Position numbers and translations under genes: made by a program
The notes under the pieces: model-generated
Database searches by the model: none
The model's input: only the letters and a program-made list of their open reading frames with translations
What the model was told of the DNA's origin: nothing
Part shown: in pieces, positions 1,487-47,789 of the stretch
Position numbering within the stretch: the first letter of the stretch is position 1
Layout: each line of letters starts with the position of its first letter
Assembly (NCBI GenBank): GCA_903912525.1
Contig: CAIWHK010000049.1
Coordinates: 21,269 to 85,268, forward strand
Direction: 5' to 3'
DNA from: an uncultured bacterium
GTDB lineage: Bacteria > Krumholzibacteriota > Krumholzibacteriia > LZORAL124-64-63
DNA: 64,000 nucleotides

Positions 1487-1515
1487 TTGACGTCTACCTG
1501 AGAAAGATGTCTAAT
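1487..1515 (+). promoter_or_regulatory. candidate sigma70-like promoter (TTGACG-N17-TCTAAT) in an AT-rich island upstream of the Calx-β gene
   Basis: Local GC drops to about 45% over 1370-1520; hexamers read directly; about 145-nt leader to the ATG at 1661. Confidence 0.3.
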
Positions 1516-1660
1516 TGTGTCCGACTATCGCAGATTCACGGAGATGGACCAGTCGCCCAACCGCGCCGATCCTCCAGGTCTCCAACTTCCCGTTCGTCGC
1601 CGCCTACCGGTCCCTGTGGGATCGGCCGCGGCTTTCGCCCCGTCAGTTCCGGGAGTTGCC

Positions 1661-4600
1661 ATGAAAGCCCAGCGCGTCCGTTTGTCAGCTGTCCTGTTGT
1701 CGATCGCCTTGGCGATCGCCATCGTCCTGCCGGCCACCCTGGCCCCGCCGGTGTACTCGGCGCCCGAGGATGCCCCGATCGCCGGCGAGACCATTGAGGG
1801 TGTCCGCGGCGTCACCGAGTCGATGGCCTCCATCAATGCGCGCCAGATGATGTACGACGCCATGGGCGGCCGCATCCTGCGCGAGCAGGAGGACCAGGAC
1901 GAGCGCGAGGAGAAGGTGGACCGCACCAGCCTCATGCAGAATCCCGAGGCGCCGCAGTCCGCTGCGATGGTCGATGGAAGACCCGCGGAGCTGCCGGCCG
2001 AAAAGTCGGCGCTGGCGTCGCAGTTGACCGTCAGCACCAACTTCACCGGCGCGACGCTGTCGGGCGTCAACCCGACGCTGGCCTTCCCGCCCGACAGCAT
2101 GGGCGCCGTCGGCCCCACGCAGTATGTGGTCTTCGTCAACGGCCGCCTGGTCACGTTCAACAAGAGCACCGGCGTGGCCGACGGCGTCATGAACGCCGAC
2201 CCGGACGTCTTCTTCGTCCCGGTCATGACGGGTGGTTCCTACACCAGCGACGCGCGTGTGCGCTATGACCGCCTGACCGGTCGCTGGTTCCTGGTGATGA
2301 TCGACGTGGCCACGCCCAACCGCATCATGTTCGCGGTCAGCGACGCGGGCAGCGCCAACGCCATCACGGTCGCGACGACCTGGACGTTCTTCGCCATCAC
2401 CAGCGCGGCCGGGTGCCTGTCCGACTACCCGACCCTCGGCATCGACGCCAACGCGCTGTATGTCGGCACGAACAATTTCTGCGGCGGCGGCACCACCTAC
2501 TCGGGCGCCGACGGCTACGTCATCCGCAAGAGCTCGATCATGGGCGCCGGCCCGATCGTCTCCACCCGCTTCGTTGTCGTGGCCAGCGCCGCGGCGGCCG
2601 GTCCCTACACGCCGCAGGGCGTCGACAACTACGACCCGAGCGCCAACGAGGGCTACTTCATCGGCTGCGACAATGCCGCCTATGGCCTGTTGCAGCTGCG
2701 CCGCGTGTTCAACCCGGGCGGCACGCCGACCATCTCGGCCAACATCCCCATCACGGTGTCTTCGACGACGGCGCCGGTTCCCGTCCCGCACCTGGGGAAC
2801 ACGGCCGGCAACAACGGCCGGCTGGACGGGCTGGATGACCGCCTGTTCGCCGCGCATATCCGGAACGGCCGCCTGTGGACCGCCCACAACATCCAGGTCA
2901 ACGCCAGCGGCGTCGCCAGCGGGTCGGGCGGCCGCAACGGCACGCGCTGGTATGAACTGAACGGCGTCCGCACCGTCGACAACGGCGGCGCGCCCGTCGT
3001 GGTGCAGTCGGGTACGATCTTCGATACTGCCGCCAGCAGCCCGCTGTCCTACTGGATCCCGTCGGTGATGGTGTCGGGCCAGGGCCACGCCGCCTTCGGC
3101 TTCAGCCATGCCGGCACCGCGGCCTACGCCAACGCAGCCGTGACCGGCCGCCTGGTCGGCGATGCGCTCAGCGCCACGCAGACTGTCCAGAAGTACACCG
3201 CCGCGACGACGGCCTACAACCCGGCCAGCGACCCGGGCGGCACCGGTGGCCGCCGCTGGGGCGATTACTCGTACACGAGCCTCGATCCCCTGGACGACAT
3301 GACCATGTGGACGGTCCAGGAGTTCTGCAACGCCGCCAACTCGTACGGCGTACGCGTGGCCAAGCTGCTGGCGCCGCCTCCGGCCACGCCGAGCGTGCTG
3401 GCTGACGTCAACGCGGGGACGGCCACGGTCAACGTCACGCTGACCGGCCTCTCGACCAGCGGTTCGGGCTTCTACGACCCGGGCACGAACCTGGCGGGTG
3501 TGCCGGCGTTCAACCACCTGTCGGCCGGCATCACCAACGGCGGGGCCACCGGCACGCCGCCCACCGTCGTGTCGGCGACCTACGTCAACCCGACCACGGT
3601 GAACCTGGTGCTCAATGCCGGTGCGGCCACGGCCAACCTGCCGGGCGAGAAGTACACGCTGACCATCACGAACCCCGACGGCCAGACCGCGGCGGCCGCC
3701 GTCGTGCGCGTGATCGGCGCCGCGGCGCCGCCCACGGCGACCATCGCGACCGGCCCGACCGCCGCCGAAGGCAACGCCGGCAGCACGCCGTTCACGTTCA
3801 CGGTCAACCTGTCGGCGGCCAGCGGTTCGAGCGTCTCGGTCAACTGGGCCACCGCCGACGGCACGGCCACCACGGCAGACGGCGACTACGTGGCCGGCTC
3901 CGGCACGTTGACCATCCCGGCCGGCGGCACGTCCGGCACTGTCAACGTGGTGGTCAGCGGCGACACCAGGTACGAGGGCAACGAGACGTTCACGGTGACG
4001 ATCAGCAGTCCGGTGAACGCCACCCTGGGCGCGACCACCAGCGCCACGGGCACCATCACGAACGACGACACGGCGCCGACGATCTCGATCGCCGCCGTTT
4101 CGCAGGCCGAGGGCAACAGCGGCGCGACGGCGTACGGGTTCACGGCGACGCTGTCGGCGGCCAGCGGCCTGGCCGCCTCGGCGAACTACACGACGGCCAA
4201 CGGCACCGCGACGGTGGCCGACGGTGACTACACCGCCGCCTCGGGCACCATCAACTTCCCGGCCGGGACCACGACGCAGCCGATCACGGTCAACGTCGCC
4301 GGTGACGTGAAGTACGAGACGGACGAGTCGTTTGCCGTCAACCTGTCGACCCTGTCGGGCCTCTCGTCAGTGACGACGCAGGGCGTCGGCACCATCACGA
4401 ACGACGATACGGCCCCGACCGTGGCCCTGGACAACGTGACGGTGGCCGAGGGCAACAGCGGCACCACGGCGTTCACGTTCACGGCGACGCTGTCGGCGGC
4501 CAGCGGCACGGTCGCCACGGCGGACTACGCCACCAGCGACGGCACGGCGACCACGGCCGACGGCGATTACGCCGCCGCCACCGGTACGGTCACCTTTGCG

Positions 4601-6040
4601 GCCGGCACGACAACGCAGAACGTCACGGTCAACGTCGCCGGCGACACGAAGCACGAAGGCGACGATGCCTTCGCCCTGGCGCTGTCGAACCTGGCGGGCA
4701 TCTCGTCGGTGACCGCGCAGGGCACGGGCACGATCACCAACGACGACACGGCCCCGACCGTGGCGATCGACGCGGTGTCGCACGCCGAGGGTGACAGCGG
4801 CACCACCGAGTACCTCTTCACGGCCACGCTGTCGGCGGCCAGCGGCCTGGTCGCCTCGGCCGACTACACGACCGTGGACGGGACAGCAACCGTCGCCGAC
4901 AGCGACTACGCGGCCGCCAACGGCACGATCACGTTCCCGGCCGGCACGACCACGCAGCCGATCACGGTGCTGGTCAACGGCGACACGGCGAATGAGCTCG
5001 ACGAGGCCTTCGCCGTGGACCTGGCGAACCTGGCCGGCATCGCGTCGGTGACGACGCAGGGCGCCGGCACCATTGTCAACGACGAGGCCGGCCCGGTGCT
5101 GTCGATCGCGAACATCTCCGTGGCCGAGGGCAACTCGGGCACGACGTCGTTCGTGTTCACGATCACGATGTCCGGCACGAGCGCCAGCAACGTCAGCGTC
5201 GACGTGGCGACGGCCGACGGCACGGCGACGGCCGGCGACTACACGGCCCGCACGGCCACGCTGACCATCCCGGCCGGCGCGACCACCCTGGCCGACACGG
5301 TGCTGGTCAGCGGCGACCTGTGCGGCGAGGTCAACGAGACGTTCACGATGACGCTGTCGAACCCGGTGAACGCCACGATCGGCACGCCGACCGCGACCGC
5401 GACCATCCAGAACGACGACGACGTGACCGCGCCGTCGGTGACCGTGACGTCGCCCAACGGCGGCGAAGCGGCCTACCTGGCCGCTCCGTACGACATCACC
5501 TGGTCGGCGAGCGACGACGTGGATGTCACGTCGGTCGACATCCTGCTGTCGCGCGACGGCGGCAGCACCTGGAGCGAGACCCTGGCGACGGGCCTCGGCA
5601 ACACCGGCACGTACGAGTGGACGGTCAACGGCCCGCTGGCCCCCGGCACGGCACTGGTGAAGGTTGTCGCCTACGACGCCGGCTGCAACAGCAACAGCGA
5701 CGTCAGCAACATGGCGTTCAACATCGCGGATCCCGCGCTGTCGGGCGTCACGGACGGCCCCGTCACCGAGTTCGCGCTCAGTTCGCTGCGCCCGAACCCG
5801 ACCGCCGGCCAGACGCTGATCCAGTACCAGTTGCCGCAGGCCAGCCACGTGCGCCTGTCCATCGTCGACCTGCGTGGCCGCACCGTGTCGCGCGTGATCG
5901 ACAACGAAGTGGGCCCCGGCCGCCACACGGCGAACTGGTCCGGCCACACGGACACGGGCCCGGCCCCGGCGGGCGTGTACTTCGTGATCTTCGAGGCGGG
6001 CGGGCATCGCTTCCACAAGAAGCTGGTGCTGACGCACTGA
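1661..6040 (+). CDS. giant secreted Calx-β repeat protein with C-terminal T9SS sorting domain
   Basis: Signal peptide MKAQRVRLSAVLLSIALAIA; about 9 Calx-β repeats ('ADGDY..A.SGT.TF.AG.T...V.V.GD...E..E.F.V.LS'); C-terminal 'RPNPTAGQTLIQYQL...GVYFV...KKLVLTH'; GGGAG 5 nt before the ATG. Confidence 0.8.
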   Translation: MKAQRVRLSAVLLSIALAIAIVLPATLAPPVYSAPEDAPIAGETIEGVRGVTESMASINARQMMYDAMGGRILREQEDQDEREEKVDRTSLMQNPEAPQSAAMVDGRPAELPAEKSALASQLTVSTNFTGATLSGVNPTLAFPPDSMGAVGPTQYVVFVNGRLVTFNKSTGVADGVMNADPDVFFVPVMTGGSYTSDARVRYDRLTGRWFLVMIDVATPNRIMFAVSDAGSANAITVATTWTFFAITSAAGCLSDYPTLGIDANALYVGTNNFCGGGTTYSGADGYVIRKSSIMGAGPIVSTRFVVVASAAAAGPYTPQGVDNYDPSANEGYFIGCDNAAYGLLQLRRVFNPGGTPTISANIPITVSSTTAPVPVPHLGNTAGNNGRLDGLDDRLFAAHIRNGRLWTAHNIQVNASGVASGSGGRNGTRWYELNGVRTVDNGGAPVVVQSGTIFDTAASSPLSYWIPSVMVSGQGHAAFGFSHAGTAAYANAAVTGRLVGDALSATQTVQKYTAATTAYNPASDPGGTGGRRWGDYSYTSLDPLDDMTMWTVQEFCNAANSYGVRVAKLLAPPPATPSVLADVNAGTATVNVTLTGLSTSGSGFYDPGTNLAGVPAFNHLSAGITNGGATGTPPTVVSATYVNPTTVNLVLNAGAATANLPGEKYTLTITNPDGQTAAAAVVRVIGAAAPPTATIATGPTAAEGNAGSTPFTFTVNLSAASGSSVSVNWATADGTATTADGDYVAGSGTLTIPAGGTSGTVNVVVSGDTRYEGNETFTVTISSPVNATLGATTSATGTITNDDTAPTISIAAVSQAEGNSGATAYGFTATLSAASGLAASANYTTANGTATVADGDYTAASGTINFPAGTTTQPITVNVAGDVKYETDESFAVNLSTLSGLSSVTTQGVGTITNDDTAPTVALDNVTVAEGNSGTTAFTFTATLSAASGTVATADYATSDGTATTADGDYAAATGTVTFAAGTTTQNVTVNVAGDTKHEGDDAFALALSNLAGISSVTAQGTGTITNDDTAPTVAIDAVSHAEGDSGTTEYLFTATLSAASGLVASADYTTVDGTATVADSDYAAANGTITFPAGTTTQPITVLVNGDTANELDEAFAVDLANLAGIASVTTQGAGTIVNDEAGPVLSIANISVAEGNSGTTSFVFTITMSGTSASNVSVDVATADGTATAGDYTARTATLTIPAGATTLADTVLVSGDLCGEVNETFTMTLSNPVNATIGTPTATATIQNDDDVTAPSVTVTSPNGGEAAYLAAPYDITWSASDDVDVTSVDILLSRDGGSTWSETLATGLGNTGTYEWTVNGPLAPGTALVKVVAYDAGCNSNSDVSNMAFNIADPALSGVTDGPVTEFALSSLRPNPTAGQTLIQYQLPQASHVRLSIVDLRGRTVSRVIDNEVGPGRHTANWSGHTDTGPAPAGVYFVIFEAGGHRFHKKLVLTH

Positions 6041-10396: not shown

Positions 10397-10420
10397 GGGA
10401 CGCCGGATCCCCGGCGTCCC
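10397..10420 (-). terminator. GC hairpin (GGGACGCCGG-atcc-CCGGCGTCCC) downstream of the HesB-like gene pair
   Basis: 10-bp perfect stem with 4-nt loop; on the minus strand it is followed by UUCCCGUU; lies 27 nt after the stop at 10447. Confidence 0.4.
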
Positions 10421-10446
10421 CATACGCATACACCATCACGCGTCGG

Positions 10447-10791
10447 TCAGCCGCACCCGCTGCAACCGCCACTGGAGCAGTCGGCGCCGGGCTTGCCGAG
10501 CTTCAGCATGTAGCCGCGGCGGTGGTTTTCGTCGATGAAGTCGATGGTCAGGCCGCCGCTTTGCTGCACGATCTCGCGCGTCTGGGCGTCCAGCATGAAT
10601 TTGATCCCGTTCGATTCGACGACCGCGTCGTCACCTGCAAGCTCATCCAGAGCCATGCCGATACTGGGGCCGCCTCAGCCAAAGCCCTGCACGAACAGTC
10701 GCACGCCTTTGCCGGCGTGTTCGGTCCAGTTGAACGTGCCGAAGGCCTCGTTCGCGCTGGCCGAGACGTTGATGAGTTCCTGATCGCTCAC
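10447..10791 (-). CDS. HesB/IscA-like A-type Fe-S carrier with in-frame TGA (candidate selenocysteine) at 10675-10677, i.e. a putative HesB-like selenoprotein
   Basis: Translation from GTG at 10791 gives 'VSDQELINVSASANEAFGTFNWTEHAGKGVRLFVQGFG*GGPSIGMALDE...GKPGADCSSGGCSGCG'. It aligns residue-for-residue with the upstream paralog ('...GKGVRLFVQGMGCSGPSIGMALDE...'), with TGA exactly at the conserved GCSG cysteine. Conservation continues in frame after the TGA. Confidence 0.5.
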
Positions 10792-11017
10792 GTCAGGTGT
10801 CCTTTCGGAGGCGATGGGCCCGCCGGGCAACATCGCGTTCAGGCGGGGCCCGTGTCCCCGCGGCCATTACCCCGCAAATGTGGCCGACGGCGGCCGGTCG
10901 CGCCACCCCGGGTTATCGGCAGCCGCCGGGATTCCTGAACGACAAGGCCCGGGGCGCAAGGGGCACTCCGGGCCTTGGAACAGTCGATCGGGGCGGTTTC
11001 CCGCCCCCGGGGCCGGC

Positions 11018-11368
11018 TCAGCCGCAGCCGCTGCAGCCGCCGGTCTTGCAGTCGCCGGGCTTGCCGAGGGTCAGCAGGTAACCGCGGCGCTCTTCCTCTT
11101 CGATGAAATCCACGCTCAGGCCGCCGCCCTGGCGCAGGATCTCCTGCGTCTGGGCGTCGATCATGAAGCGGACACCCGCCTGCTCGACCACTTCGTCATC
11201 GGCCGTCGCCTCGTCGAGCGCCATGCCGATGCTCGGGCCGCTGCAGCCCATGCCCTGGACGAACAGGCGCACGCCCTTGCCCTCGTGGGCCGACCAGTCG
11301 AAGCCGCCGAAGGCGCGGCCGGCGTTGTCCGTAATCGTCAGCAAAGCCGTCTTTTCCAGGTTTTCCAC
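11018..11368 (-). CDS. HesB/IscA-like A-type Fe-S carrier (Cys-containing paralog)
   Basis: 'LTITDNAGRAFGGF...GKGVRLFVQGMGCSGPSIGMALDEA...FMIDAQ...DFIEEEERRGYLLTLGKPGDCKTGGCSGCG', IscA fold pattern with an unusual CxxGGCxGCG tail; GTG start with AAAGGA RBS. Confidence 0.6.
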   Translation of the reverse strand: MENLEKTALLTITDNAGRAFGGFDWSAHEGKGVRLFVQGMGCSGPSIGMALDEATADDEVVEQAGVRFMIDAQTQEILRQGGGLSVDFIEEEERRGYLLTLGKPGDCKTGGCSGCG

Positions 11369-11489
11369 GGTCCCGGGTCCTTTCGGGTTTCGCACGACCG
11401 GCGGGCCGGGCCGGTGCCGGCGCGGGCCGGGTGGGCGCGCGCAGGCGGCCAATATCGCCCGGGAGGCCCGTTTCCGCCAATCAGGACTG

Positions 11490-13301: not shown

Positions 13302-15293
13302 TTACTTCACCAGCTGCATCGAACGGACCTGCATGACTTCCTTGCCGATGCGCAGGCGGGCGAAGTAACTGCCGCTCGCCACGCTCTTGCCGGCGTCATC
13401 AGTGCCGTTCCAGCTCACGTCGTACGTGTTCGCGGGCAGGCTGTCCTGGATCAGGGTCCGGACCTTCTCGCCGCGGATGTTGTACACGTTCAGCTGGACC
13501 AGGTTGTTCTTGGTCACGACGAACTTGATGCTCGTCTGCGGGTTGAACGGGTTCGGGCTGATCGACTTGAAGCCGCCCAGCTTCTCGATCGTCGGGATGT
13601 CGTTGCCGACGCCCGACGGGCCGTTCACCAGCGCGATGAACGAGTCATCGGCCGGCCGCAGCTTGAAGTTGCCGAACTCGTAGTCGACGAACGAATTGAC
13701 GGTGATCCAGTTGCCCGGGTGCGGCGTGTAGGCCAGCACGGGGTACGGATCCACGAACACGGTGTCGGCCAGGGCCGCGGTGTCGGAGATCTGGAACTCG
13801 TGGTACTGGGCCAGACCGGCGGTGTCCATGACCGCGGCGTTGTACGTCTGCACCCAGACGCTCTCCCAGGCCTCGCCCAGGGCGCCGTTGCCGTCCGACG
13901 ACGTCATGTCGTCGTTCAGCACGCGCGTGTGGACGCGGGCCGGGACCGGCAGGGCCTGGCCGAAGCTGACCAGGTTGACGGCCTCGGCGTTGTGGGGCAG
14001 CATCTCGGTCAGGCCGAAGTACTCGCCGCCCTTGCCGCCGATCTCGACGACGTCACCCTGGTAGTACGGGTACTTGCCCGAGCCTTCGTACACCAGCACG
14101 CCGCCGAAGGCGTAGCTGCTGGTGGCCGGGTTCACGGCGAGCTCCTGCACAACAAACTTGCTGGCGGCGTTGGTCGCGGCGCCCGTGCCCGCGGTGACGA
14201 CACCCTTGATGTTCAGGAACTTGTTGTTGAACGCGTTCGACTGCGAGGTGCTGTCGGGGTGCGCGTACTGCATCGCATAGATCGACTGGAAGCCGACCGC
14301 GAAGGTGAAGAACGACGTCGGCGCGTTGCCGGGGTTCTTCACGGTCTGCGCGCCGGTGTCCGTCGTCTGGATGTAGAAGTCGACCTGGCTCGCCGAATGG
14401 GCGCCCGGGACCGTGGCCGAATAGGTGCTGCCAGCAGCCGACATGGACAGCTGGTTCCAGCCGCCCGGCGTCACGCCGTCGCTGTTCCGGTAGAACAGGT
14501 AGGCCGACGTGATGCCGGCGTTGTCGACGATGTTGGCCGACACGGTGACGGCCGTCGTGGACAGCGGGCACCAGTTGTTGCAGTTGACCGCCGTGATCAC
14601 GGGAGCGGTGTCGCCGCCCGGGTTCTCGATGAGGTCGGTCTGCAGCACGGGCTTGATCTCGATCTGCGTGTTGAACGTCACGACCGGGCCCGAGAACTGG
14701 AAGAGGTCGCCGACGGCCACGTTGCCGACGTCGATCTGGCAGTCCTTGTCGCAGTAGACCAGGATGGAGTCCGTCAGGGACGTGGGCGCCCCGGTCTTGA
14801 CCCAGATGTTCGCCGAGACCAGGGGCGGCGTGCCCGAGGTCGTCTTGCGGGCGACGGTGCCGACGATGGCGCCGTAGTGGCCCACGTTCTCGTAGGACGA
14901 CATCGTCTGGGCGATGGTCTTGAGCTCGGGGGTCAGCGGATGCGGGCCGGCCGAGATCAGGGTGTAGTTGGTGACGTTGATCTGGATCTCGCCGCTGAAC
15001 GAAGCGACCAAACCGGTCACGGAGACTTCGTCGCCGATCGCGACCGCGTCGCCGGTGCCGCCGAACAGCGAGATGCCGGGGCCGCCGACGCCGATCAGGT
15101 AGCCGGAGCCGGTGCTGTACTTGTGGTACTCGAGCAGGGTGCCCGAGACCGTGACGGTCTGGCCCATGTACGGGGTAGCCGGGACGCCGGCCACCGTGTA
15201 GACCTGGATCTCATCGATGGTCACGGCAAAGGCGAAGCTGCTCGCCAGGGCCATGATCATCAGGATTGCCACGCCAAAAAGATGCTTTTTCAT
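13302..15293 (-). CDS. secreted protein with C-terminal T9SS sorting domain (Ser/Thr/Asn/Val-rich cargo of unknown function)
   Basis: Signal peptide MKKHLFGVAILMIMALASSFAFA; C-terminal 'SISPNPFNPQTSIKF...NVYNIRGEKVRTL...SGSYFARLRIG...MQLVK'; AAGGAGG RBS. Confidence 0.75.
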   Translation of the reverse strand: MKKHLFGVAILMIMALASSFAFAVTIDEIQVYTVAGVPATPYMGQTVTVSGTLLEYHKYSTGSGYLIGVGGPGISLFGGTGDAVAIGDEVSVTGLVASFSGEIQINVTNYTLISAGPHPLTPELKTIAQTMSSYENVGHYGAIVGTVARKTTSGTPPLVSANIWVKTGAPTSLTDSILVYCDKDCQIDVGNVAVGDLFQFSGPVVTFNTQIEIKPVLQTDLIENPGGDTAPVITAVNCNNWCPLSTTAVTVSANIVDNAGITSAYLFYRNSDGVTPGGWNQLSMSAAGSTYSATVPGAHSASQVDFYIQTTDTGAQTVKNPGNAPTSFFTFAVGFQSIYAMQYAHPDSTSQSNAFNNKFLNIKGVVTAGTGAATNAASKFVVQELAVNPATSSYAFGGVLVYEGSGKYPYYQGDVVEIGGKGGEYFGLTEMLPHNAEAVNLVSFGQALPVPARVHTRVLNDDMTSSDGNGALGEAWESVWVQTYNAAVMDTAGLAQYHEFQISDTAALADTVFVDPYPVLAYTPHPGNWITVNSFVDYEFGNFKLRPADDSFIALVNGPSGVGNDIPTIEKLGGFKSISPNPFNPQTSIKFVVTKNNLVQLNVYNIRGEKVRTLIQDSLPANTYDVSWNGTDDAGKSVASGSYFARLRIGKEVMQVRSMQLVK

Positions 15294-15592
15294 CCTTCCG
15301 GCCTCCTTCGCGCAATGAAGGTGAACGTCTCTTCAGTCATTTCTGAGTAGTCTCGTCAAGTGCATGAACCAGAAGTGGAAAGGAAATCCTCCACGCAGTC
15401 GAACGATCGGGCCCGGGCCCGGGAACGCCTTCCCGAAGCACTGCGGTTACTCCCGCACCGTCCAGCCGCCCGAGACCAGGATACGTCCCCGCGGAATTGC
15501 GGGGTGGGCGATCCTGGACCGAGGCCGCAATCATACCATATTCCGCAGGGAATGCGAAAAAAGTTCTGCTAATTATATGTCAATTCGACAAA

Positions 15593-17203
15593 TTACAAGT
15601 CCGTGATCAAGAGCGAACGACCCGTCATTTCAACAGGTTGCGAAAGCCCCAGCAGTTCCAGGATGGTTGGGGCGATGTCGGCCAGACCCGCCTCTCCGGT
15701 CCGCAGGATTCCTGACCTGCCGGCGTACTGCCGACCGGCCAGGATGAAGGGTACCCGGCTGAGCGAATGCTGGGTCAGGACCTCGCCGTCGGGGCTGAGC
15801 ATTTCATCACAATTGCCGTGGTCGGCCGTCACCAGCCAGGTGGTGCCGCGGGCCAGGCTCGGGGGCATGATCTCGCCCAGGAGGCGATCCAGCGTACGGA
15901 ACGCGCTGACGGCCGCCTCGTAGATGCCGGTGTGCCCGACCATGTCGCCGTTGGCGAAGTTGACCACGATCAGGTCGAAGTCATTGCTCGCGCAGGCCTG
16001 GGCCACGACCGCCGCCACTTCGGGGGCGCTCATCTCGGGCTGCAGGTCATAGGTGGCGACCTTCGGTGACGGCACCAGGCGGCGGACCTCGCCCGGCCAG
16101 GGTTCCTCGCGGCCCCCGTTGAAGAAGTAGGTCACGTGGGCGTACTTCTCGGTCTCGGCGGTGCGCAGGTTGCGCAGGCCGGCGTTCGCCATGACCTCGG
16201 CCAGGCCGTTGCGCGGCGCCTCGGACGAGTACTGCGACGGCAGGTCCAGCTTCTCGTCGTAGGGGGTCATCGTCAGGTAGTGCACGCGGGGGCGCCGCGC
16301 GATGGGGAAGCCGTCGAAGCCGTCCTGCCTGAAGGCCCAGGTCAGCTCGCGGGCGCGGTCGGCCCGGAAATTCCAGAAGAAGATGCCATCGCCGTCCTGC
16401 ACCGTCGCCAGCGGGGCGCCGGCTTCGTCGGTGATGACGGTCGGGGCCATGAACTCGTCGGTGACGCCGGCCGCGTAGGAGTCGGCGACCGCCTGCACGG
16501 CGTCCTGGGCGCGCAGGCCCTTGTCGTCGATGACGCCGTCGACGATCAGGTTCCAGGCGCGCACGACGCGCTCCCACCGCTTGTCGCGATCCATCCCCCA
16601 GTAGCGTCCGCAGACGGTGGCGATGCGCCCGGCGCCGATGCGGTCCAGTTGCGCCTGCAGTTCCTCGAGGTAGCCGCGGCCGCTGCGGGGATCGGTGTCG
16701 CGCCCGTCCAGGAACGCGTGCACGAAGATCTCGCGGAAACCGGCCTTTTTCGCCTGTTCGATGATGCCGTAGAGGTGCTCGGTGTGCGAATGCACGCCGC
16801 CGGGCGAGACCAGGCCCAAGAGGTGCAGGCGGCCGGTGTCCTTGATGCAGGCGTCGGCGAAGTTCTTCCAGCCCGGGCGCGTGGCGAACTCGCCCTCGTC
16901 GAGGCTGCGGCTGATGCGCACCAGTTCCTGGTTGATGACGCGACCGGCGCCGATGGTCAGGTGCCCGACCTCGCTGTTGCCCATCTGCCCCTCGGGCAGG
17001 CCCACGTCCAGGCCGCAGGCGTTCAGCGTCGTGAACGGGTAGTCGCGCAGCAGCGATTCGTAGTAGGCGGGATGGGCGCCGATGACGGCGTTGCCGCGCT
17101 CGCGGTCGGGGTCGGTGCGGTAGCCCACGCCGTCGAGGATGCACAGGACGACCTTCGGGGCGCCCGGATCGGTGGTGTTGTCCAGCGGGTCAACGTGGGT
17201 CAT
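15593..17203 (-). CDS. gpmI: 2,3-bisphosphoglycerate-independent phosphoglycerate mutase
   Basis: Full-length iPGM; 'NSEVGHLTIGAGR', 'GGVHSH', 'ADHGN' motifs. Confidence 0.9.
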   Translation of the reverse strand: MTHVDPLDNTTDPGAPKVVLCILDGVGYRTDPDRERGNAVIGAHPAYYESLLRDYPFTTLNACGLDVGLPEGQMGNSEVGHLTIGAGRVINQELVRISRSLDEGEFATRPGWKNFADACIKDTGRLHLLGLVSPGGVHSHTEHLYGIIEQAKKAGFREIFVHAFLDGRDTDPRSGRGYLEELQAQLDRIGAGRIATVCGRYWGMDRDKRWERVVRAWNLIVDGVIDDKGLRAQDAVQAVADSYAAGVTDEFMAPTVITDEAGAPLATVQDGDGIFFWNFRADRARELTWAFRQDGFDGFPIARRPRVHYLTMTPYDEKLDLPSQYSSEAPRNGLAEVMANAGLRNLRTAETEKYAHVTYFFNGGREEPWPGEVRRLVPSPKVATYDLQPEMSAPEVAAVVAQACASNDFDLIVVNFANGDMVGHTGIYEAAVSAFRTLDRLLGEIMPPSLARGTTWLVTADHGNCDEMLSPDGEVLTQHSLSRVPFILAGRQYAGRSGILRTGEAGLADIAPTILELLGLSQPVEMTGRSLLITDL

Positions 17204-17218
17204 GCCATCTCCAGGTCT

Positions 17219-17587
17219 TCAGTCGGGGTCGAAACTGCCGGCGGGCACCTGCCACAGCTCGGTCTCGCCGAGCGCGGCCAGGATCATGTCGGCCAGGGGA
17301 TAGGTGTCCAGGTTCGGGTCGGGCGCGCCGTCGGGTCGCGTTTCGAGACCGGCCCCCGCCTGCAGGACCGCGCGCGTGATCTCGCGCCCGTCCGGCAGCA
17401 GCTGGGTCACGCGCAGGCGGCCGCGGCGGACCAGGTACACCGCCGGGACGGTGGCGTGCAGCAGCTGGTCCGGGGCCAGGGGCATCAGGCGCCGCACCTG
17501 GGCCAGCTTGCCGGCCAGGTCGGGCTGCCGCGAGAACAGGTGTTCGTCGCGCCGCAGGCTCAGCAGGGGGGCGGGTTCAGCGGGCAC
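17219..17587 (-). CDS. small cyclic-nucleotide-binding (Crp-like cNMP) domain protein, no HTH
   Basis: β-roll-like pattern 'VYLVRRGRLRVTQLLPDGREITRAVLQAG'; only 122 aa. Confidence 0.4.
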   Translation of the reverse strand: MPAEPAPLLSLRRDEHLFSRQPDLAGKLAQVRRLMPLAPDQLLHATVPAVYLVRRGRLRVTQLLPDGREITRAVLQAGAGLETRPDGAPDPNLDTYPLADMILAALGETELWQVPAGSFDPD

Positions 17588-17753
17588 GGAAGGGTCTCCA
17601 CTCGCTTGCCGGGGTTCAGGTTGCGTCGATCACAGGATACGCCCGGCGGGGGCCGGCGCAAACCGGAATCGCCGGTCGGCGGGCCGTTCGGCCTGCCCCA
17701 CAATTTTGTTGTTGCGGACCTATATCGGACGAGGTTAGTATTAATTTCGCAAT

Positions 17754-17766: not shown

Positions 17767-17907
17767 TTCGTGGTCAATGGGGCCCGGGGCGGGCCGGATT
17801 GACGGGCGAAAACGGGCTCCCTGCGGGCGGCCCATGACGGGGACCGAGGGCGGACGCCAACGGCGCCGCGGGAGCAGGGGCGGGACGTGAAGGGTGGGGC
17901 CGGAGGC

Positions 17908-18723
17908 ATGATGACCAAGCGCGCACACACGAGCAGCGGCCTGGCCGCGGTGTTGGCGTTGACGGCGCTGCTGGCGTCGTCGACGGCGCCGTCGCCTGCG
18001 CGGGCGCAGCTGAACGAGGAAGCGGTCGAGTACCAGGAGCACCTGGGCGGGATCGTGCCGGGCGACATCGTCCTGAAGGACGAGCAGGGGCTGCCCGTCA
18101 CCACGGGCGACCTCTTCGACAAGCCGACCATCCTCATGATGGTCTACTACGACTGCCCGGGCATCTGCACGCCGCTGCTGAACGAAGTCGCGGACATCCT
18201 GGGCAAGAGCCAGATGGACCCGACGAAGCAGCCGTTCCAGCTGGTCGCCGTCAGTATCAAGCCGACGGACACGCCCGAGACGGCGAAACAGAAGCGGGCC
18301 AACTACCTGAAGCTGGTGGGCCGGCCGCTGCCCGAGTCGACCTGGCGGTTCATGACCGCGGACCAGCCGTCGATCGACCGCATCACCGGCGCCGTCGGCT
18401 TCCGCTACAAGAGCGCCGGAAGCGAGTTCACGCATCCAGCCGGCCTGGTGATCCTGGCGCCCGACCGCAAGATCACGCGCTACCTGATAGGCAACGAGTT
18501 CCTGCCGTTCGACTTCCAGATGGGCATCTACGAGGCCTCGCGCGGGACGGTCATGCCGACCACCGCGAGGCTGATCAAGATGTGCTTCAGCTACGATCCG
18601 GAAGGCCGGACCTACGTCTTCAACATCATGCGGGTGACCGCGTTCGTGATGCTGACGACGCTGGTCGTCTTCGGTGCGTTCCTGTACTACACGACCCGCC
18701 GCAAGCGGCGCGGGGAGGGTTGA
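17908..18723 (+). CDS. sco1: SCO1/SenC copper chaperone for cytochrome c oxidase
   Basis: 'YYDCPGICTP' CxxxC thioredoxin-like motif; C-terminal TM anchor; immediately upstream of ctaD. Confidence 0.8.
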   Translation: MMTKRAHTSSGLAAVLALTALLASSTAPSPARAQLNEEAVEYQEHLGGIVPGDIVLKDEQGLPVTTGDLFDKPTILMMVYYDCPGICTPLLNEVADILGKSQMDPTKQPFQLVAVSIKPTDTPETAKQKRANYLKLVGRPLPESTWRFMTADQPSIDRITGAVGFRYKSAGSEFTHPAGLVILAPDRKITRYLIGNEFLPFDFQMGIYEASRGTVMPTTARLIKMCFSYDPEGRTYVFNIMRVTAFVMLTTLVVFGAFLYYTTRRKRRGEG

Positions 18724-18727
18724 TCCG

Positions 18728-20374
18728 ATGGCAGAATCGAAGACCGGGCCCGCCTGGACCGGCAACTACCTGCAGGACTACGGCAGCCGGCGGGGCCTGA
18801 TGGCCTGGCTCACGACGACCGACCACAAGCGCATCGGCCTGATGTACGCTGCGGCGATGTTCACGTTCTTCGCGGTGGCTGTCCTGCTGGGCCTGCTCAT
18901 CCGCCTGGAACTGATGAACCCCGGCATGCAGTACGTGACGCCTCGCGTGTACAACTCCCTGTTCACGCTGCACGGCGTCATCATGATCTTCCTGTTCATC
19001 GTCCCGGGCATCCCGGCGATCTTCGGGAACATCATGTTGCCGCTGCAGCTGGGTGCCGACGACGTCTCGTTCCCGAAGCTGAACCTGGCCTCGTGGTACG
19101 TCTACATCGCGGGGGCCATCCTGGCGCTGATGTCGCTCTTCGTGGGCGGCGGCGTGCCGGACACCGGCTGGACGTTCTATGCACCATACGCGCTGCGCTC
19201 GGGCAGCAACGTCTCGCTGGCCGTGTTTGCGGCGTTCGTGCTGGGCTTCAGCTCGATCATGACGGGCATGAACTTCATCACGACCATCCACCGGCTGCGC
19301 GCGCCCGGCATGGGCTTCTTCCGGATGCCGCTGTTCTGCTGGGGCCTGTACGCCACGTCGTGGATCCAGGTCATCGCCACGCCGGTCGTGGGCATCACGC
19401 TGCTGCTGGTGATCATGGAGCGTTCGCTGGGCATCGGGTTCTTCGACCCGGCGCGCGGCGGCGACCCGGTCCTGTACCAGCACCTGTTCTGGATCTACTC
19501 GCACCCGGTCGTGTACGTGATGATCCTGCCGGCGATGGGCGTCATCTCCGAGATCCTGCCGACGTTCGCCGGGCGCACCGTGTTCGGCTACAAGGCGATC
19601 GCGCTGTCGTCGATGGCCATCGCCATCGTCGGCTACATGGTGTGGGGCCACCACATGTTCACCGTGGGCATGAGCGACACGGCGCGGCGCGTGTTCAGCA
19701 TCCTGACGTTCCTGGTGGCCATCCCCACCGGCATCAAGGTCTTCAACTGGATGGCCACGCTCTACAAGGGCTCGATCCGCATCGAGCCGCCGCTGTTGTG
19801 GGCAGTCGGGTTCATCTTCCTGTTCTCGATCGGCGGCCTGACGGGCCTGGTGAACGGCGCCCTGTCGACCGACATCCACGTGCACGACACGGCGTTCGTG
19901 GTGGGCCACTTCCACTACACGATGTTCGGCGGCGCCGGCGTGGGGCTGTTCGCGGCCATGCACTACTGGTGGCCCAAGGTGTTCGGGCGCATGTACAATC
20001 GGAAGCGCGCGATCTGGGCCTGGGGCCTCTTCATGGTCGGCTTCAACCTGCTGTACTTCCCGATGCTGGTGATGGGCATCATGGGCATGCCGCGCCGTTA
20101 CGCCGACTACCTGCCCCAGTTCCATACGCCGCACCTGATTGCGACCATCGGCTCGTGGGTCATGGTCTCGGGCATCATCGTGATGCTGTGGAACCTGATC
20201 CGGGCGATCAGGCATGGCGCGCCGGCGCCGGCCAATCCCTGGGAGGGCACGACGCTGGAGTGGCAGACGACGTCGCCCCCGCCGCAGCTGAACTTCGCCG
20301 TGCCGCCGTCGGTGACGACCGGACCCTATGACCACACCGCGCTGCGCGCCGCCGCGGCGAAGGAGGCCCGTTGA
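18728..20374 (+). CDS. ctaD: cytochrome c oxidase subunit I
   Basis: 'WLTTTDHKRIGLMY', 'GHHMF', 'HFHY'; 12-TM heme-copper oxidase. Confidence 0.95.
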   Translation: MAESKTGPAWTGNYLQDYGSRRGLMAWLTTTDHKRIGLMYAAAMFTFFAVAVLLGLLIRLELMNPGMQYVTPRVYNSLFTLHGVIMIFLFIVPGIPAIFGNIMLPLQLGADDVSFPKLNLASWYVYIAGAILALMSLFVGGGVPDTGWTFYAPYALRSGSNVSLAVFAAFVLGFSSIMTGMNFITTIHRLRAPGMGFFRMPLFCWGLYATSWIQVIATPVVGITLLLVIMERSLGIGFFDPARGGDPVLYQHLFWIYSHPVVYVMILPAMGVISEILPTFAGRTVFGYKAIALSSMAIAIVGYMVWGHHMFTVGMSDTARRVFSILTFLVAIPTGIKVFNWMATLYKGSIRIEPPLLWAVGFIFLFSIGGLTGLVNGALSTDIHVHDTAFVVGHFHYTMFGGAGVGLFAAMHYWWPKVFGRMYNRKRAIWAWGLFMVGFNLLYFPMLVMGIMGMPRRYADYLPQFHTPHLIATIGSWVMVSGIIVMLWNLIRAIRHGAPAPANPWEGTTLEWQTTSPPPQLNFAVPPSVTTGPYDHTALRAAAAKEAR

Positions 20375-21027
20375 TGCGTTCCGAAAGCGGGACCCTTGGC
20401 GCGACGGCGGTATCGCCCGCCGCCGTCGCGCACCACGAGCATCGCGACGACATCGGCAGCAAGACCGGCATGTGGCTGTTCCTGTTCACGGAGCTGCTGC
20501 TGTTCGGCGGGCTGTTCATCGTCTATGCGGTCTACCGCCACAAGTACGGCACCGAGTTCCATGAGGCCGCCCACGAGCTGAACAAGGTCATGGGCGTGAC
20601 CAATACGTTTGTCCTGCTGACCAGCAGCCTGACGATGGTGCTGTCGGTGGGCGCGCTGCAGCGGGCGCGTGTGGCCGAGTCGCTGCGCTGGCTGGGCGCC
20701 ACGTTCGGGCTGGCCTGCTGCTTCCTGGTCATCAAGTTCTTCGAGTGGAGTGCCAAGCACCACCACGGCATCTGGCCCGGCGGCGAGCACCTGCACGCGA
20801 TGCCGCCCGGCGAGGGCATGTTCTTCAACCTGTACTTCATGATGACCGGGCTGCACGGCATCCACGTGCTGATCGGCATGGGCGTCATGGGTTCGATCGC
20901 GGCGCGCATCCGCTCGGGGCACGTGTCGGCCTCGCGCTACGCCGCCCTGGAGTTCACGGGGCTGTACTGGCACCTGGTCGACCTGGTCTGGATCTTCCTG
21001 CTGCCGCTGTTCTACCTGACCAACTGA
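20374..21027 (+). CDS. ctaE: cytochrome c oxidase subunit III
   Basis: 'MWLFLFTELLLFGGLF', 'YWHLVDLVWIFL'; TGATG overlap with ctaD; AGGAGG RBS. Confidence 0.9.
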   Translation: MRSESGTLGATAVSPAAVAHHEHRDDIGSKTGMWLFLFTELLLFGGLFIVYAVYRHKYGTEFHEAAHELNKVMGVTNTFVLLTSSLTMVLSVGALQRARVAESLRWLGATFGLACCFLVIKFFEWSAKHHHGIWPGGEHLHAMPPGEGMFFNLYFMMTGLHGIHVLIGMGVMGSIAARIRSGHVSASRYAALEFTGLYWHLVDLVWIFLLPLFYLTN

Positions 21028-21053
21028 GCGAACGGCGAGGGAAAGGGACGACG

Positions 21054-21401
21054 ATGCAAGATTCACACACGACGGGCGCCCACGCCCATCCCGCGCCGCA
21101 CGGCGGCGGCCACGGAGGCGACCATGCCGCGCATGCGCCTGTGGCGACCGGCACCTTCGTGTTGGTCTGGGTGGCCCTGCTGGTGCTGACGCTGGTCACC
21201 GTAGCCGCGTCGACCTGGTTTCCGGGCAAGGTCGGCATCGGGGTGGCCATGGTGGTCACGCCGATCAAGGCGGCGCTGATCCTCATGTGGTTCATGCACC
21301 TCAAGTACGAGGCCATGGTCTTCCGGACGATGTTCCTGTCCGCGATCGGGATCCTGGCCCTGGTCATGGGCCTGACGTTCTTCGACTATTCGTTCCTGTG
21401 A
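21054..21401 (+). CDS. coxD: cytochrome c oxidase subunit IV (caa3-type small subunit)
   Basis: About 115-aa 3-TM protein 'HGGGHGGDHAAHAP...WFMHLKYE'; GGGAAAGGGA RBS. The 20745 ORF is a frame artefact. Confidence 0.7.
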   Translation: MQDSHTTGAHAHPAPHGGGHGGDHAAHAPVATGTFVLVWVALLVLTLVTVAASTWFPGKVGIGVAMVVTPIKAALILMWFMHLKYEAMVFRTMFLSAIGILALVMGLTFFDYSFL

Positions 21402-21411
21402 GAGGGTGGGC

Positions 21412-22305
21412 ATGACGGGAGCTTCCAGTTATTCGGCGATGGTCGACAAGACCTTCTGGATGATCCTCGGTTCGTCGGTGATCATGCTCGTGGGCATCAC
21501 CGCCACCATGATCCTGTTCATGGTGAAGTACCGGCGGTCGCGCCATCCCGTCGCCAGTGACATCGAGGGCAGCGCCACGCTCGAAACGCTGTGGACCGTT
21601 CTGCCTACCGTCCTGGTGATGGTCATGTTCTACTACGGCTGGGCAGGCTTCAAGGTGATGCGCGAGACGCCCAAGGGCGCCATCCCCATCACCGTGCAGG
21701 CGCGCATGTGGTCGTGGTCGTTCAAGTACGAGAACGGCAAGCAGACGACCGACCTGTACGTGCCTGTGGGGCGGCCCGTGGCCGTGAACCTGGAGTCGGC
21801 GGACGTCATCCACAGCTTCTTCGTGCCGGCCTTCCGGGTGAAGGAAGACTGCATGCCCGGGCGCAAGAACCACGCCTGGTTCCAGGCCGAGCGCGAGGGC
21901 GTCTACGACCTCATGTGCGCCGAGTATTGCGGCGACAAGCACAGCGCGATGCTGGCGAAGGTCGTGGCGGTGCCGGCGGACACGTTCGACGTCTGGCTCG
22001 AGCGCGGCGGCGGGCGGCCCACGGGCGAGAAGCTGCTGAAGATCAAGGGCTGCGTGGCCTGCCACAGCAGCGACGGCACCAAGCTTGTCGGCCCCAGCTA
22101 CAAGGGCCTGTTCGGCAAGAAGGAACGCGTGATGACGAACGGCGTCGAGCGCGAGATCACGGTGGACGAGGAGTACATCCGCCGCTCGCTGCTGCAGCCC
22201 AAGGCCGACGTTGTGGTGGGCTACCAGCCGCAGATGCCCGAGATGGGCAACCAGCTGGACGAAGAGGATATCCAGCTGATCATCGACTACATCAAGAGGC
22301 AGTAG
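21412..22305 (+). CDS. ctaC: cytochrome c oxidase subunit II with fused C-terminal cytochrome c domain (caa3-type)
   Basis: CuA site 'H...CAEYCGDKHSAM'; C-terminal 'CVACHSSDG' heme c motif. Confidence 0.9.
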   Translation: MTGASSYSAMVDKTFWMILGSSVIMLVGITATMILFMVKYRRSRHPVASDIEGSATLETLWTVLPTVLVMVMFYYGWAGFKVMRETPKGAIPITVQARMWSWSFKYENGKQTTDLYVPVGRPVAVNLESADVIHSFFVPAFRVKEDCMPGRKNHAWFQAEREGVYDLMCAEYCGDKHSAMLAKVVAVPADTFDVWLERGGGRPTGEKLLKIKGCVACHSSDGTKLVGPSYKGLFGKKERVMTNGVEREITVDEEYIRRSLLQPKADVVVGYQPQMPEMGNQLDEEDIQLIIDYIKRQ

Positions 22306-22317
22306 GGGCGTGCGGCG

Positions 22318-23208
22318 TTGAAGACGTGGCTGGACCTGGTCAAGCTGAGGATCACCGTGGCGTCGACGGTGACGCTGGTGGTGGGCTACGTGATGGCGCG
22401 CGGGCGGTTCGACTGGCCGCTGCTGCCGCTGTCGCTGGGCATCCTGCTGCAGGCCTGCGGCGCCGCCGCGTTCAACCAGGTGCAGGACGCGAAGGTGGAC
22501 GCCCTGATGGCCCGCACCGCGTCGCGGCCGATCCCTTCGGGGCGCATCTCGCGCCGGAACGCGGGCATCTTCGCCGCCGCGCTGCTGGTGGCGGGCACCG
22601 CGCTGCTGTTCCTGTACTCGCCGTCGGCGGCCTGGCTCGGCGTCGGAGCGGCCGTCGTCTACAACCTCGTCTACACTCCGCTCAAGCGTGTGACGCCGTT
22701 CGCGGCCCTGCCGGGCGCGCTGATCGGCGCGCTGCCCCCGGCCATGGGCTGGACGGCGGCCGGCGGCTACCTGCAGGATCCGGCCATCCACCTGGTGTCG
22801 TTCTTCTTCTTTCTCTGGCAGATCCCGCATTTCTGGCTGCTGCTGCTGTTCTACGCGCAGGACTACCAGGGCGGCGGGCTGCCCTCGATGCTGGACCGGT
22901 TCGACCGGGTGCAGGTGCTGCGGATGACGTTCCTGTGGATCGCGGCGGTGAGCGCCGCGGCACTGCTGCTGCCGCTGGCGAACTTTTTCGCCCGCCCCGC
23001 ACTGGCCTACGTGCTCGCGGGCGCCGGCGCCCTGCTGGTGGTCCGCGCGGTGACGCTGCTGAAGCTGGCGGTGCCGGGCGTGACGCCGGGCGCGGCGTTG
23101 CAGCCGTTCCGCCGCGCCTGCCGGATGCGCTTCATGGAGATCAACACGTTCGCGCTGCTGGTCTGCGTGCTGCTGGTGGCGGACGCGCTGCTGCTGCCCG
23201 GTCGCTGA
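22318..23208 (+). CDS. ctaB: protoheme IX farnesyltransferase (heme O synthase)
   Basis: UbiA-fold: 'NQVQDAKVDALMARTASRPIPSGRIS', 'WQIPHFW'; TTG start inferred. Confidence 0.85.
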   Translation: MKTWLDLVKLRITVASTVTLVVGYVMARGRFDWPLLPLSLGILLQACGAAAFNQVQDAKVDALMARTASRPIPSGRISRRNAGIFAAALLVAGTALLFLYSPSAAWLGVGAAVVYNLVYTPLKRVTPFAALPGALIGALPPAMGWTAAGGYLQDPAIHLVSFFFFLWQIPHFWLLLLFYAQDYQGGGLPSMLDRFDRVQVLRMTFLWIAAVSAAALLLPLANFFARPALAYVLAGAGALLVVRAVTLLKLAVPGVTPGAALQPFRRACRMRFMEINTFALLVCVLLVADALLLPGR

Positions 23209-25869: not shown

Positions 25870-26765
25870 CGTCCCGCCGCTTCCCGCGGCATCGAGCGCG
25901 CCAGGCGCAGGCCGACATGCGTGAACCGCTGCTCAGGGAAGGCCTTCTGGCGCGCGGCCGAGCGGCAGTTGCGGCCCAGTTCGTGCCAGTTGCCGCCGCG
26001 AATGATGCGCTCGCCGCCCCGGTCCGGCCCGCGGGGGTCGGTGGCCGCGGCCGTCGTCTGGAACCCGTGCCGGTCCCAGCACCACTCGCTGATGTTGCCG
26101 TGCATGTCGTCCAGGTCCCACTGGTTCGGCGGGAACGAACCGACCTCGATCGCCTGGCCGCGCCACATGCCCTTCGGGCAGCCCTTCTGCGGGTCGTAGC
26201 CCAGGTAGTTGGCCTGCTCGGTGCCCAGGCACTCGCCGGTGTTGAAGACCGTGGCGGTGCCCGCGCGGCAGGCGTACTCCCACTCGGCCTCGGTGGGCAG
26301 GCGCAGGCCGTCCGAGGTGTGGTCCCAGGTCACCAGCGTGTCGCGGATCGTGTAGGCGACGGGGAAGCCCATCTTGCGCGAGAGGGCATTGCAGAAATTG
26401 ACGGCCTCGAACCAGCTGATGCTCTCGACCGGGCAGTCGGGGCAGTTGTAGAGGAAGCTCGGGTTGTTGCCGGTGATCGCGGCCCACTGCGCCTGGGTCA
26501 CTTCGTAGCGGGCCAGGTAGAAGGGGTTCGCGATGGTGACCTGGTGCCGGGTCTCGTCGTTGCGGCTGCCCCACTCGGTCTCGGGGCTGCCCATCTGGAA
26601 GGTGCCGGCCGGCACCATGACGAATTCGAGGTGGCCGCGCCCGACATCGTCGCGCGGCGAACGGCCGGCTCCCGTGGGGGGAGCAGGCTGCGCCATCGTC
26701 CGGCCTGCCACAAGCAGGGCCAACACACAGGCGGCGATGAGGATGCGCTGTCGGGGGTACAGCAT
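25866..26765 (-). CDS. formylglycine-generating enzyme (SUMF1/FGE family)
   Basis: 'RGGNW', 'EWEYACRAGT', 'HGNISEWCWD'; 4-bp overlap with the sulfatase gene. Confidence 0.85.
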   Translation of the reverse strand: MLYPRQRILIAACVLALLVAGRTMAQPAPPTGAGRSPRDDVGRGHLEFVMVPAGTFQMGSPETEWGSRNDETRHQVTIANPFYLARYEVTQAQWAAITGNNPSFLYNCPDCPVESISWFEAVNFCNALSRKMGFPVAYTIRDTLVTWDHTSDGLRLPTEAEWEYACRAGTATVFNTGECLGTEQANYLGYDPQKGCPKGMWRGQAIEVGSFPPNQWDLDDMHGNISEWCWDRHGFQTTAAATDPRGPDRGGERIIRGGNWHELGRNCRSAARQKAFPEQRFTHVGLRLARSMPREAAGR

Positions 26766-26929
26766 CCCGTCGTCGTCTTTCGATGTCAGGTCAGGCGGCG
26801 CCGGGGCGGGGTGCCTGCGCCGAAGGGAGATCGTAACATATCCGTGATAGGCTGTATATGGGGTCGGTAAAGATGTCTTTCCCCGGGTGCGGTTGACAGC
26901 GCCCGGGGGCGGGGCTACCGTGGCGATAA

Positions 26930-27018
26930 CCGTTGGGGGTGGCCGAACCGGCTGGACCGGGTTGGCCTGAGAAAGACCCTTGGAACCTGAACCGGATCAT
27001 GCCGGCGTAGGGAAACGG
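26930..27018 (+). ncRNA. TPP riboswitch (THI-box)
   Basis: ccgttGGGGTGgccgaaccggctggaccgggttggCCTGAGAaagACCCTTgGAACCTGAaCCGGatcatGCCGGCGTAGGGAAacgg: all hallmark THI-element blocks present, with a P1 closing pair ccgtt/aacgg. Confidence 0.85.
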
Positions 27019-27027
27019 GCCGCTTGC

Positions 27028-27062: not shown

Positions 27063-27108
27063 GTACGCGGTGACGTTCCCGCACCGGCCACCTCGAGTGG
27101 AGGCGGCC

Positions 27109-47788: not shown

Positions 47789-47789
47789 C

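Follow-up and report, generated by a model that had tools for sequence, protein, structure and literature searches.

Does the TGA that interrupts one of two tandem HesB/IscA-like genes in an uncultured bacterium stop translation, or is it read as selenocysteine (Sec)? The question is raised by a 64,000-nucleotide stretch of contig CAIWHK010000049.1 (assembly GCA_903912525.1, positions 21,269 to 85,268 of the forward strand), referred to here at its full length as the window, whose genes have their named relatives in Candidatus Krumholzibacteriia. The interrupted gene, hereafter the Sec gene, occupies positions 10791..10447 on the minus strand (start GTG 10791-10789, stop TGA 10449-10447, 114 sense codons including the Sec codon), and the in-frame UGA is its codon 39 (10677-10675). 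We consider it highly likely that this UGA encodes Sec, and that the product is a 114-residue homolog of the A-type (IscA/HesB-fold) iron-sulfur (Fe-S) carriers with selenocysteine as the first of three predicted ligands. The UGA itself, its conservation, the coding constraint on both sides of it, the constraint on an RNA hairpin that follows it, the IscA fold and the alignment of the ligand positions are directly supported by the comparisons described below.

A tandem pair of HesB/IscA-like genes

The initial annotation of this locus described two HesB/IscA-like genes in tandem, the downstream copy carrying an in-frame TGA at a ligand cysteine, and the sequence is as it described. The upstream, cysteine-containing copy (the Cys paralog; 11368..11018, minus strand, 116 aa, start GTG 11368-11366, stop 11020-11018) lies 226 nt upstream of the Sec gene. 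It reads ...GKGVRLFVQGMG-C(TGC)-SGPSIGMALDE...DCKTGGCSGCG* (also given as ...GKGVRLFVQGMGCSGPSIGMALDE...), with the ligand Cys codon TGC at 11245-11243, while the Sec gene reads ...GKGVRLFVQGFG[TGA]GGPSIGMALDE...DCSSGGCSGCG*. The two copies are 62 % identical over their whole length and therefore do not represent a recent duplication. A Shine-Dalgarno-like GAAAGGA (10806..10800, minus strand) stands 8 nt before the GTG of the Sec gene and is kept in the intergenic alignment of the window with three other tandem loci (L001, L022 and L027).

Both copies can be assigned to the IscA/HesB fold. A phmmer search against solved structures matched the Sec copy to Escherichia coli IscA (1s98/1r94, E value 2e-6); in the alignment, the UGA coincides with the ligand Cys35, the position at which the paralog has its TGC, and C105 is paired with Cys99. 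An AlphaFold2 model of the Cys paralog (mean predicted local distance difference test score, pLDDT, 80.6; tail disordered) returned IscA 1r94 as its best Foldseek match (template modelling (TM) score 0.77), together with SufA and [2Fe-2S]-bound IscA (TM 0.66-0.77). Searches of NCBIfam, in which the Sec codon was scored as Cys, gave NF038090 (IscA_HesB_Se) as the best model for both copies (Sec gene: 55.5 bits, E value 5.7e-15, residues 7-111), followed by TIGR00049, IscA models and TIGR01911 (HesB_rel_seleno). In Pfam, a match to Fe-S_biosyn was returned for the Cys copy only, and it was sub-threshold. The Cys-rich tail of the Sec protein carries C105, C110 and C113 in the arrangement C-x4-C-x2-C, not the C-G-C of A-type carriers. 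HesB-like proteins, whose motif is UxGP, are listed among the established predicted selenoprotein families (PMC13188914) and also figure in PMC1794560, both of them surveys by Zhang and Gladyshev; the U-G-G-P of the window gene matches this motif, in agreement with the initial annotation, which had pointed to a reported HesB-like selenoprotein family.

Conservation of the TGA and coding constraint

Ortholog DNA was obtained from two close genomes, five long contigs reached by exact-protein look-up, 45 metagenome loci found with a pattern independent of the Cys/Sec codon and four contigs carrying the window's fragment. Comparing orthologs at this codon, as the initial annotation had proposed, gave a uniform answer: TGA occupies the same codon in 53/53 FVQGFG_GGP-type genes, which come from independent assemblies, span ~60-97 % identity and represent 45 unique 153-nt segments and 44 unique full regions. 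There is no sign of decay, since in the complete copies the frames are open on both sides, with no frameshift or second stop, and run into the Cys-rich C-terminal tail (CxxGGCxGCG in most). The seven genes with TGC at this position form separate paralog groups, and a rough neighbor-joining tree nests the Cys forms within the Sec sequences. At the protein level, our search returned seven full-length Cys homologs and ~77 clusters of proteins of 68-77 residues, all starting with MALDE; such a pattern would be expected if gene callers stop at a conserved TGA.

Purifying selection is equally strong before and after the TGA. The median pairwise ratio of nonsynonymous to synonymous substitution rates (dN/dS) was 0.196 over the 34 codons that precede it and 0.202 over the 58 codons that follow. 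Six codons separate the TGA from the next ATG: the residues G-G-P-S-I-G are kept, while the Ser codon alternates between TCA, AGC and AGT, and the stretch is therefore translated in the frame of the Sec gene under selection on the amino acid.

A conserved hairpin after the UGA

The initial annotation could not fold a canonical selenocysteine insertion sequence (SECIS) by eye, and it proposed folding the 60 nt after the UGA with a bacterial SECIS model. Covariance-model searches and folding energies did not identify such an element (see below), but the orthologs share a SECIS-like hairpin. With the U of UGA numbered +1, it extends from +24 to +38. In the window, this core hairpin (10654..10640, minus strand) reads GGCUC-UGGAU-GAGCU and consists of 5 bp closed by a 5-nt apical loop with GG. 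The consensus across orthologs is GGCUC-UGGAU-GAGC(C/U), a 15-nt element that begins 20 nt after the UGA, the outermost pair being G-U in the window lineage but mostly G-C elsewhere. The full set of five pairs is present in 45/45 unique orthologs, the loop being UGGAU in 44 and UGGAC in one, and the core hairpin is the only helix in the RNAalifold consensus. Bacterial SECIS elements commonly place a hairpin shortly after the UGA and have G in its small apical loop (PMC1088965), and the +24 to +38 hairpin is a stem-loop of this description within the coding region.

The codons that make up the hairpin are frozen at their synonymous sites (GCU 45/45, CUG 45/45, GAU 44/45 and GAG 45/45), whereas other columns with an invariant residue vary freely (Val: GTC 22, GTG 17, GTA 4, GTT 2; Leu: CTC 23, CTG 12, CTT 9). 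Mean synonymous diversity was 0.011 in the hairpin block and 0.337 in the 23 other invariant-amino-acid columns, and only 32 of 100000 random draws of four columns were as low as the hairpin block. In the seven Cys paralogs, which encode M-A-L-D-E or a near-identical peptide, the codons are GCG/GCC, CTC/CTG and GAC/GAT, and no hairpin forms. The support for the hairpin, as judged from these alignments, is its invariance at synonymous sites and not covariation.

For the window lineage only, the minimum-free-energy fold predicts an extended stem from +15 to +46 (10663..10632, minus strand), which adds the pairs A22-U39/C21-G40/G20-C41 and C18-G43/U17-G44/A16-U45/U15-G46 to the core and shortens the spacer after the UGA to 11 nt. 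This spacer matches the E. coli spacing; the G residues of the core loop, at +30 and +31, are further from the UGA than those of the fdhF element. The extended lower stem was not recovered in the consensus fold of the 45 orthologs.

The stem-loop to which the initial annotation had drawn attention, GACGAC-gcg-GTCGTC, is present as an inverted repeat at +46 to +60 (10632..10618, minus strand); it is not the conserved element, which lies ~20 nt nearer the UGA. All 6 pairs form in 22/45 unique orthologs, every one of which encodes D-D-x-V-V, and at most four pairs form in 14. The stem decays where the peptide is not D-D-x-V-V, and we rejected it as a SECIS candidate; it is probably incidental, a by-product of the peptide, because the Asp codon GAC and the Val codon GTC are reverse complements.

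Evidence against selenocysteine and alternative explanations

Several observations weigh against the reading of the UGA as Sec. First, no selA, selB, selD or tRNA-Sec lies within the window or the flanks of the fetched loci. The initial annotation had noted this absence for the window, and a Pfam scan of 40 window open reading frames (ORFs), none of which is a sel gene, and ARAGORN, which found no tRNA-Sec in the window or in 22 loci (and no tRNA at all in the window), bear it out. Second, the six Sec genes that were scored (the window's and five orthologs) fall under the curated cut-offs of both selenoprotein models (NF038090: 55.5-62.5 bits, cut-off 85; TIGR01911: 32.6-45.5 bits, the window's 32.7, cut-off 66.35), as does one Cys homolog (P0006). 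Third, the conserved helix is only 5 bp long. Three of its pairs never vary, the two outer ones change only from G-C to G-U and there is no two-sided compensatory change; covariation of this kind is absent because the hairpin core never varies. No conserved or covarying lower stem was found with RNAalifold or in an all-pairs scan, the latter being noisy and uninformative. Single-sequence folds after the UGA were no more stable than shuffles (z -0.5 to +1.0), and Rfam returned no SECIS-type match, either for the whole window at gathering thresholds or for 10400-11400 at E<=10. Finally, the loop UGGAU differs from the loop in E. coli fdhF, which is GGUC.

The strongest remaining alternative is a selenium-free programmed readthrough, in which the hairpin would help a near-cognate tRNA (Trp, Cys or Arg) to decode the UGA. 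It draws on several of the points just listed, namely the lack of Sec machinery among the genes of the window and fetched flanks and a hairpin that is short, matches no Rfam family and has a loop unlike the E. coli consensus. The position of the codon tells against it, however: the UGA coincides exactly with a Cys-ligand position at which the family is already known to use Sec. Insertion of Cys would also predict some TGC or TGT among the 45 unique orthologs, and there is none. Bacterial SECIS elements are, in general, recognisable by a hairpin with a small G-containing loop after the UGA (PMC1088965). We therefore regard readthrough without selenium as improbable.

Less likely still is an arrangement of two small genes with no recoding, the first encoding 38 residues up to the TGA and the second 69 residues from the ATG 18 nt further on. 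Many public assemblies do annotate these ORFs (38 aa and 68-77 aa), but the joined halves can be aligned over their entire length with both single-chain IscA and the complete paralog, and the 18 nt from TGA to ATG are constrained in frame at the amino-acid level, the switch of Ser codon family included. Furthermore, no Shine-Dalgarno-like sequence precedes the ATG, and the fold, as modelled, would require strands from both halves. We give this explanation very little weight.

The initial annotation had itself named a very recent pseudogenisation as its alternative, that is, a TGC-to-TGA nonsense mutation in a duplicated HesB gene whose downstream part has not yet decayed. TGC and TGA differ by a single base, the adjoining intact Cys paralog could cover the function, and a private nonsense codon in the window's hemE shows that such lesions occur in this assembly. 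The ortholog survey nevertheless refutes it and leaves it a minimal chance: the TGA is shared by all 53 orthologs across ~60-97 % identity, with no frameshift or second stop, and dN/dS is 0.20 downstream of the TGA, equal to that upstream. The hemE gene (window ~49197-50230, minus strand), part of a heme-biosynthesis cluster, is itself a useful contrast. It is intact except for an in-frame TAG at 49902-49904 (...RDERDIRSL[TAG]RYPSLEGV...), where its closest homolog (P0085, 98 % identical, 345 aa) has the sense codon for Glu; the change is a single-base GAG-to-TAG, private to this assembly, and it reflects either an error of sequencing or assembly or a nonsense mutation of very recent origin. 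To judge from the sequences compared, the TAG in hemE shows the pattern of a private lesion, and the TGA of the HesB gene looks nothing like it.

Reassignment of UGA to a sense codon (codes 4 or 25) and sequencing or assembly error have nothing specific in their favor and are refuted, with a negligible chance of being correct, since TGA is the ordinary stop of the Sec gene, the paralog and most coding-like ORFs of the window (the genetic code is therefore standard), the G+C content of the genome is 69 %, and dozens of independent assemblies share this TGA. The exact C-terminal fragment, moreover, was found in 64 blocks of a public collection, so the TGA cannot be an assembly error.

With these alternatives weighed, selenocysteine remains our preferred reading of the UGA, as the initial annotation had proposed; it is carried by the unbroken conservation of the TGA, by the equal purifying selection on both sides and by the hairpin with its invariant synonymous sites.

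Searches for other candidate selenoprotein genes

A pattern scan of 416 kb for a TGA followed by the UGGAU hairpin gave HesB genes only. Scanning for coding segments joined by a TGA, based on G+C content at third codon positions (GC3), returned a single other case, at 17219-17221. This TGA-interrupted ORF (within 15593-17629, minus strand) was rejected, as it comprises a Crp-like gene followed in frame by a 2,3-bisphosphoglycerate-independent phosphoglycerate mutase (iPGM) gene. A search of the literature for Krumholzibacteria together with selenocysteine found nothing relevant.

Proposed mechanism

If the UGA is read as Sec, translation would start at the GTG behind the GAAAGGA ribosome-binding site, and the UGA at codon 39 would be recoded instead of serving as a stop, the signal for this being the RNA hairpin inside the coding sequence. 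SelB, the Sec-specific elongation factor, carrying Sec-tRNA(Sec), would bind the GGCUC-UGGAU-GAGC(C/U) hairpin, and translation would run on to the Cys-rich tail, where C105, C110 and C113 would supply the remaining ligands. The upstream paralog is the all-cysteine isoform and lacks the hairpin. The dependence on SelB and tRNA-Sec, the incorporation of selenium and the binding of an Fe-S cluster are steps that we infer from these sequence features.

Relationship to known systems

The Sec gene has most in common with the HesB-like selenoproteins (TIGR01911/NF038090): it encodes a small single-domain protein of the HesB/IscA fold with the putative Sec at the first conserved Cys, its U-G-G-P fits UxGP, Cys homologs exist and a hairpin follows immediately downstream of the UGA. 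It differs in that the window clade scores under the curated cut-offs, has a Gly/Ser-rich C-terminal tail with C-x4-C-x2-C-G and, in part of the clade, keeps a Cys paralog in tandem. Published HesB-like selenoproteins are mostly from anaerobes (PMC1794560), whereas the window lineage has an aa3-type cytochrome oxidase cluster. In effect, the window clade would appear, from its sequences, to be an unannotated sister branch of the known HesB-like selenoprotein family with a different C-terminal cysteine motif.

With IscA, SufA and ErpA (TIGR00049; PDB 1s98, 1r94, 1x0g, 2d2a), the pair shares the fold (TM 0.66-0.77 for the paralog model) and alignable sequence, and a SUF operon is found in the same window. 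However, the Sec gene lies outside any isc or suf operon, the first ligand is predicted to be Sec, the tail is CxxxxCxxC where these proteins have CGC, and Fe-S binding is putative here. A-type carriers are defined by three ligand cysteines in the arrangement C-x(60-65)-C-G-C, which the Sec gene does not encode, and the six Sec genes fall under the TIGR00049 cut-off of 58.8 (38.1-48.8 bits; the window's 38.1, the Cys copy 47.7).

The hairpin resembles bacterial SECIS elements (E. coli fdhF type; bacterial SECIS (bSECIS) consensus, PMC1088965) in being a stem-loop inside the coding sequence, after the UGA, with a small G-containing apical loop. It differs from them in that only a 5-bp, 15-nt core is conserved, this core being invariant in sequence, and in that there is no conserved bulged U or lower stem.

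Finally, the presence of a Sec protein and a Cys paralog in one genome recalls the Sec/Cys isoform pairs of Methanococcus maripaludis (PMC11097638). Those pairs are hydrogenases and formate dehydrogenases for which selenium-dependent regulation has been demonstrated (PMC11097638), whereas the window pair is a putative Fe-S carrier whose regulation we conjecture from a 226-nt spacer containing hairpins.

The spacer and a possible isoform switch

The tandem Cys-Sec layout is also found in L001, L022, L027, L041 and L055-L058, and the more distant lineages L003-L008 have a Sec gene with no Cys paralog nearby. An alignment of five tandem loci shows that the 226-nt spacer between the Cys and Sec genes (11017..10792, minus strand) contains two hairpins, one of them G+C-rich and immediately behind the Cys gene, together with a conserved CCGATAACC motif; all three elements are kept across L001, L022, L027 and L041. 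Consensus scanning of the coding strand of the spacer found neither a sigma-70-type promoter nor a terminator, and an Rfam match to sul1 that falls in the spacer is at chance level (E value 0.4, below any threshold). The layout suggests that the spacer may be a regulatory region, perhaps a terminator plus a separate promoter, and it is compatible with separate regulation of the two genes. Beyond the pair, a perfect 10-bp, G+C-rich hairpin, GGGACGCCGG-ggat-CCGGCGTCCC, followed by TTCCCGTT, lies 27 nt past the stop of the Sec gene (10420..10397, minus strand). Its sequence makes it a probable transcription terminator; a terminator scan missed it because its T run is short.

A more speculative proposal is that the tandem genes form a switchable pair of Fe-S carrier isoforms, with a selenium form, whose Se would be a ligand of the cluster, and a sulfur form used according to the supply of selenium or oxygen, in a lineage that probably also respires oxygen. 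We hold this to be doubtful. If true, no earlier Sec/Cys switch would have been described in the trafficking of Fe-S clusters, and it would also show the Sec form to be ancestral in the clade, with the Cys forms nesting within the Sec sequences.

Genomic context

The SUF operon (35371-40732, plus strand) is situated ~25 kb from the HesB pair and encodes sufC, sufB and sufD (Pfam), followed by a SufS-like cysteine desulfurase and a small NifU/SufU-like protein, both of them ORFs identified only by visual inspection. We noted no A-type carrier among the genes of the operon.

The aa3-type cytochrome c oxidase cluster (17803-23205, plus strand) comprises SCO1/SenC, COX1, COX3, COX2 with a fused cytochrome c and a UbiA-family heme O synthase, and respiration of oxygen is therefore probable for the organism that carries the Sec gene. 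An almost complete gene cluster for heme biosynthesis occupies one strand (42861-54301, minus strand) and includes hemA, a hemY-like oxidase, hemH, hemN, hemE, hemB and hemC (Pfam), in addition to a hemL-like ORF (~50240-51500) read by eye only. The hemA ORF as listed spans 784 codons stop to stop and has an unusually long N-terminus, its Pfam domains beginning at residue 334.

Other features of the window concern transport and secretion. A thiamine pyrophosphate (TPP) riboswitch (Rfam RF00059, 68.8 bits; 26925-27030, plus strand) stands directly before a TonB-dependent receptor gene (26971-29430, plus strand; Plug and beta-barrel domains), a placement that suggests thiamine-regulated outer-membrane uptake rather than biosynthesis. 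Very large secreted proteins are encoded at 1502-6037 (plus strand), 13305-15332 (minus strand) and 54379-60719 (plus strand); their C-terminal sorting domains are of the FlgD_ig or Por_Secre_tail type (type IX secretion), one of the proteins has five Calx-beta repeats, and they are consistent with an organism of the Fibrobacteres-Chlorobi-Bacteroidetes (FCB) group (Krumholzibacteriota-like). A sulfatase gene (Sulfatase and SGSH_C domains) adjoins the gene for its formylglycine-generating enzyme (FGE-sulfatase) at 24496-26996 (minus strand).

Implications for HesB-like selenoproteins

HesB-like selenoproteins were first predicted some twenty years ago. Public assemblies, NCBI records included, annotate the present clade as two short hypothetical ORFs (gene callers give 38-aa and 69-aa products), and NCBI rules would leave it unnamed because its scores lie under the curated cut-offs. 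As the clade falls under the cut-offs of all curated models, model-based selenoproteome surveys miss it, and they may also overlook the use of Sec in Krumholzibacteriia altogether. The practical gain is better annotation, and no new mechanism or kind of biology is shown. The more than 40 distinct sequences form a clean data set, which fixes a minimal, sequence-invariant SECIS core, and in this clade the putative Sec is fixed at a metal-ligand position, not at a redox CxxU site. The conserved Cys/Sec tandem would provide a natural control for the role of selenium in an A-type carrier.

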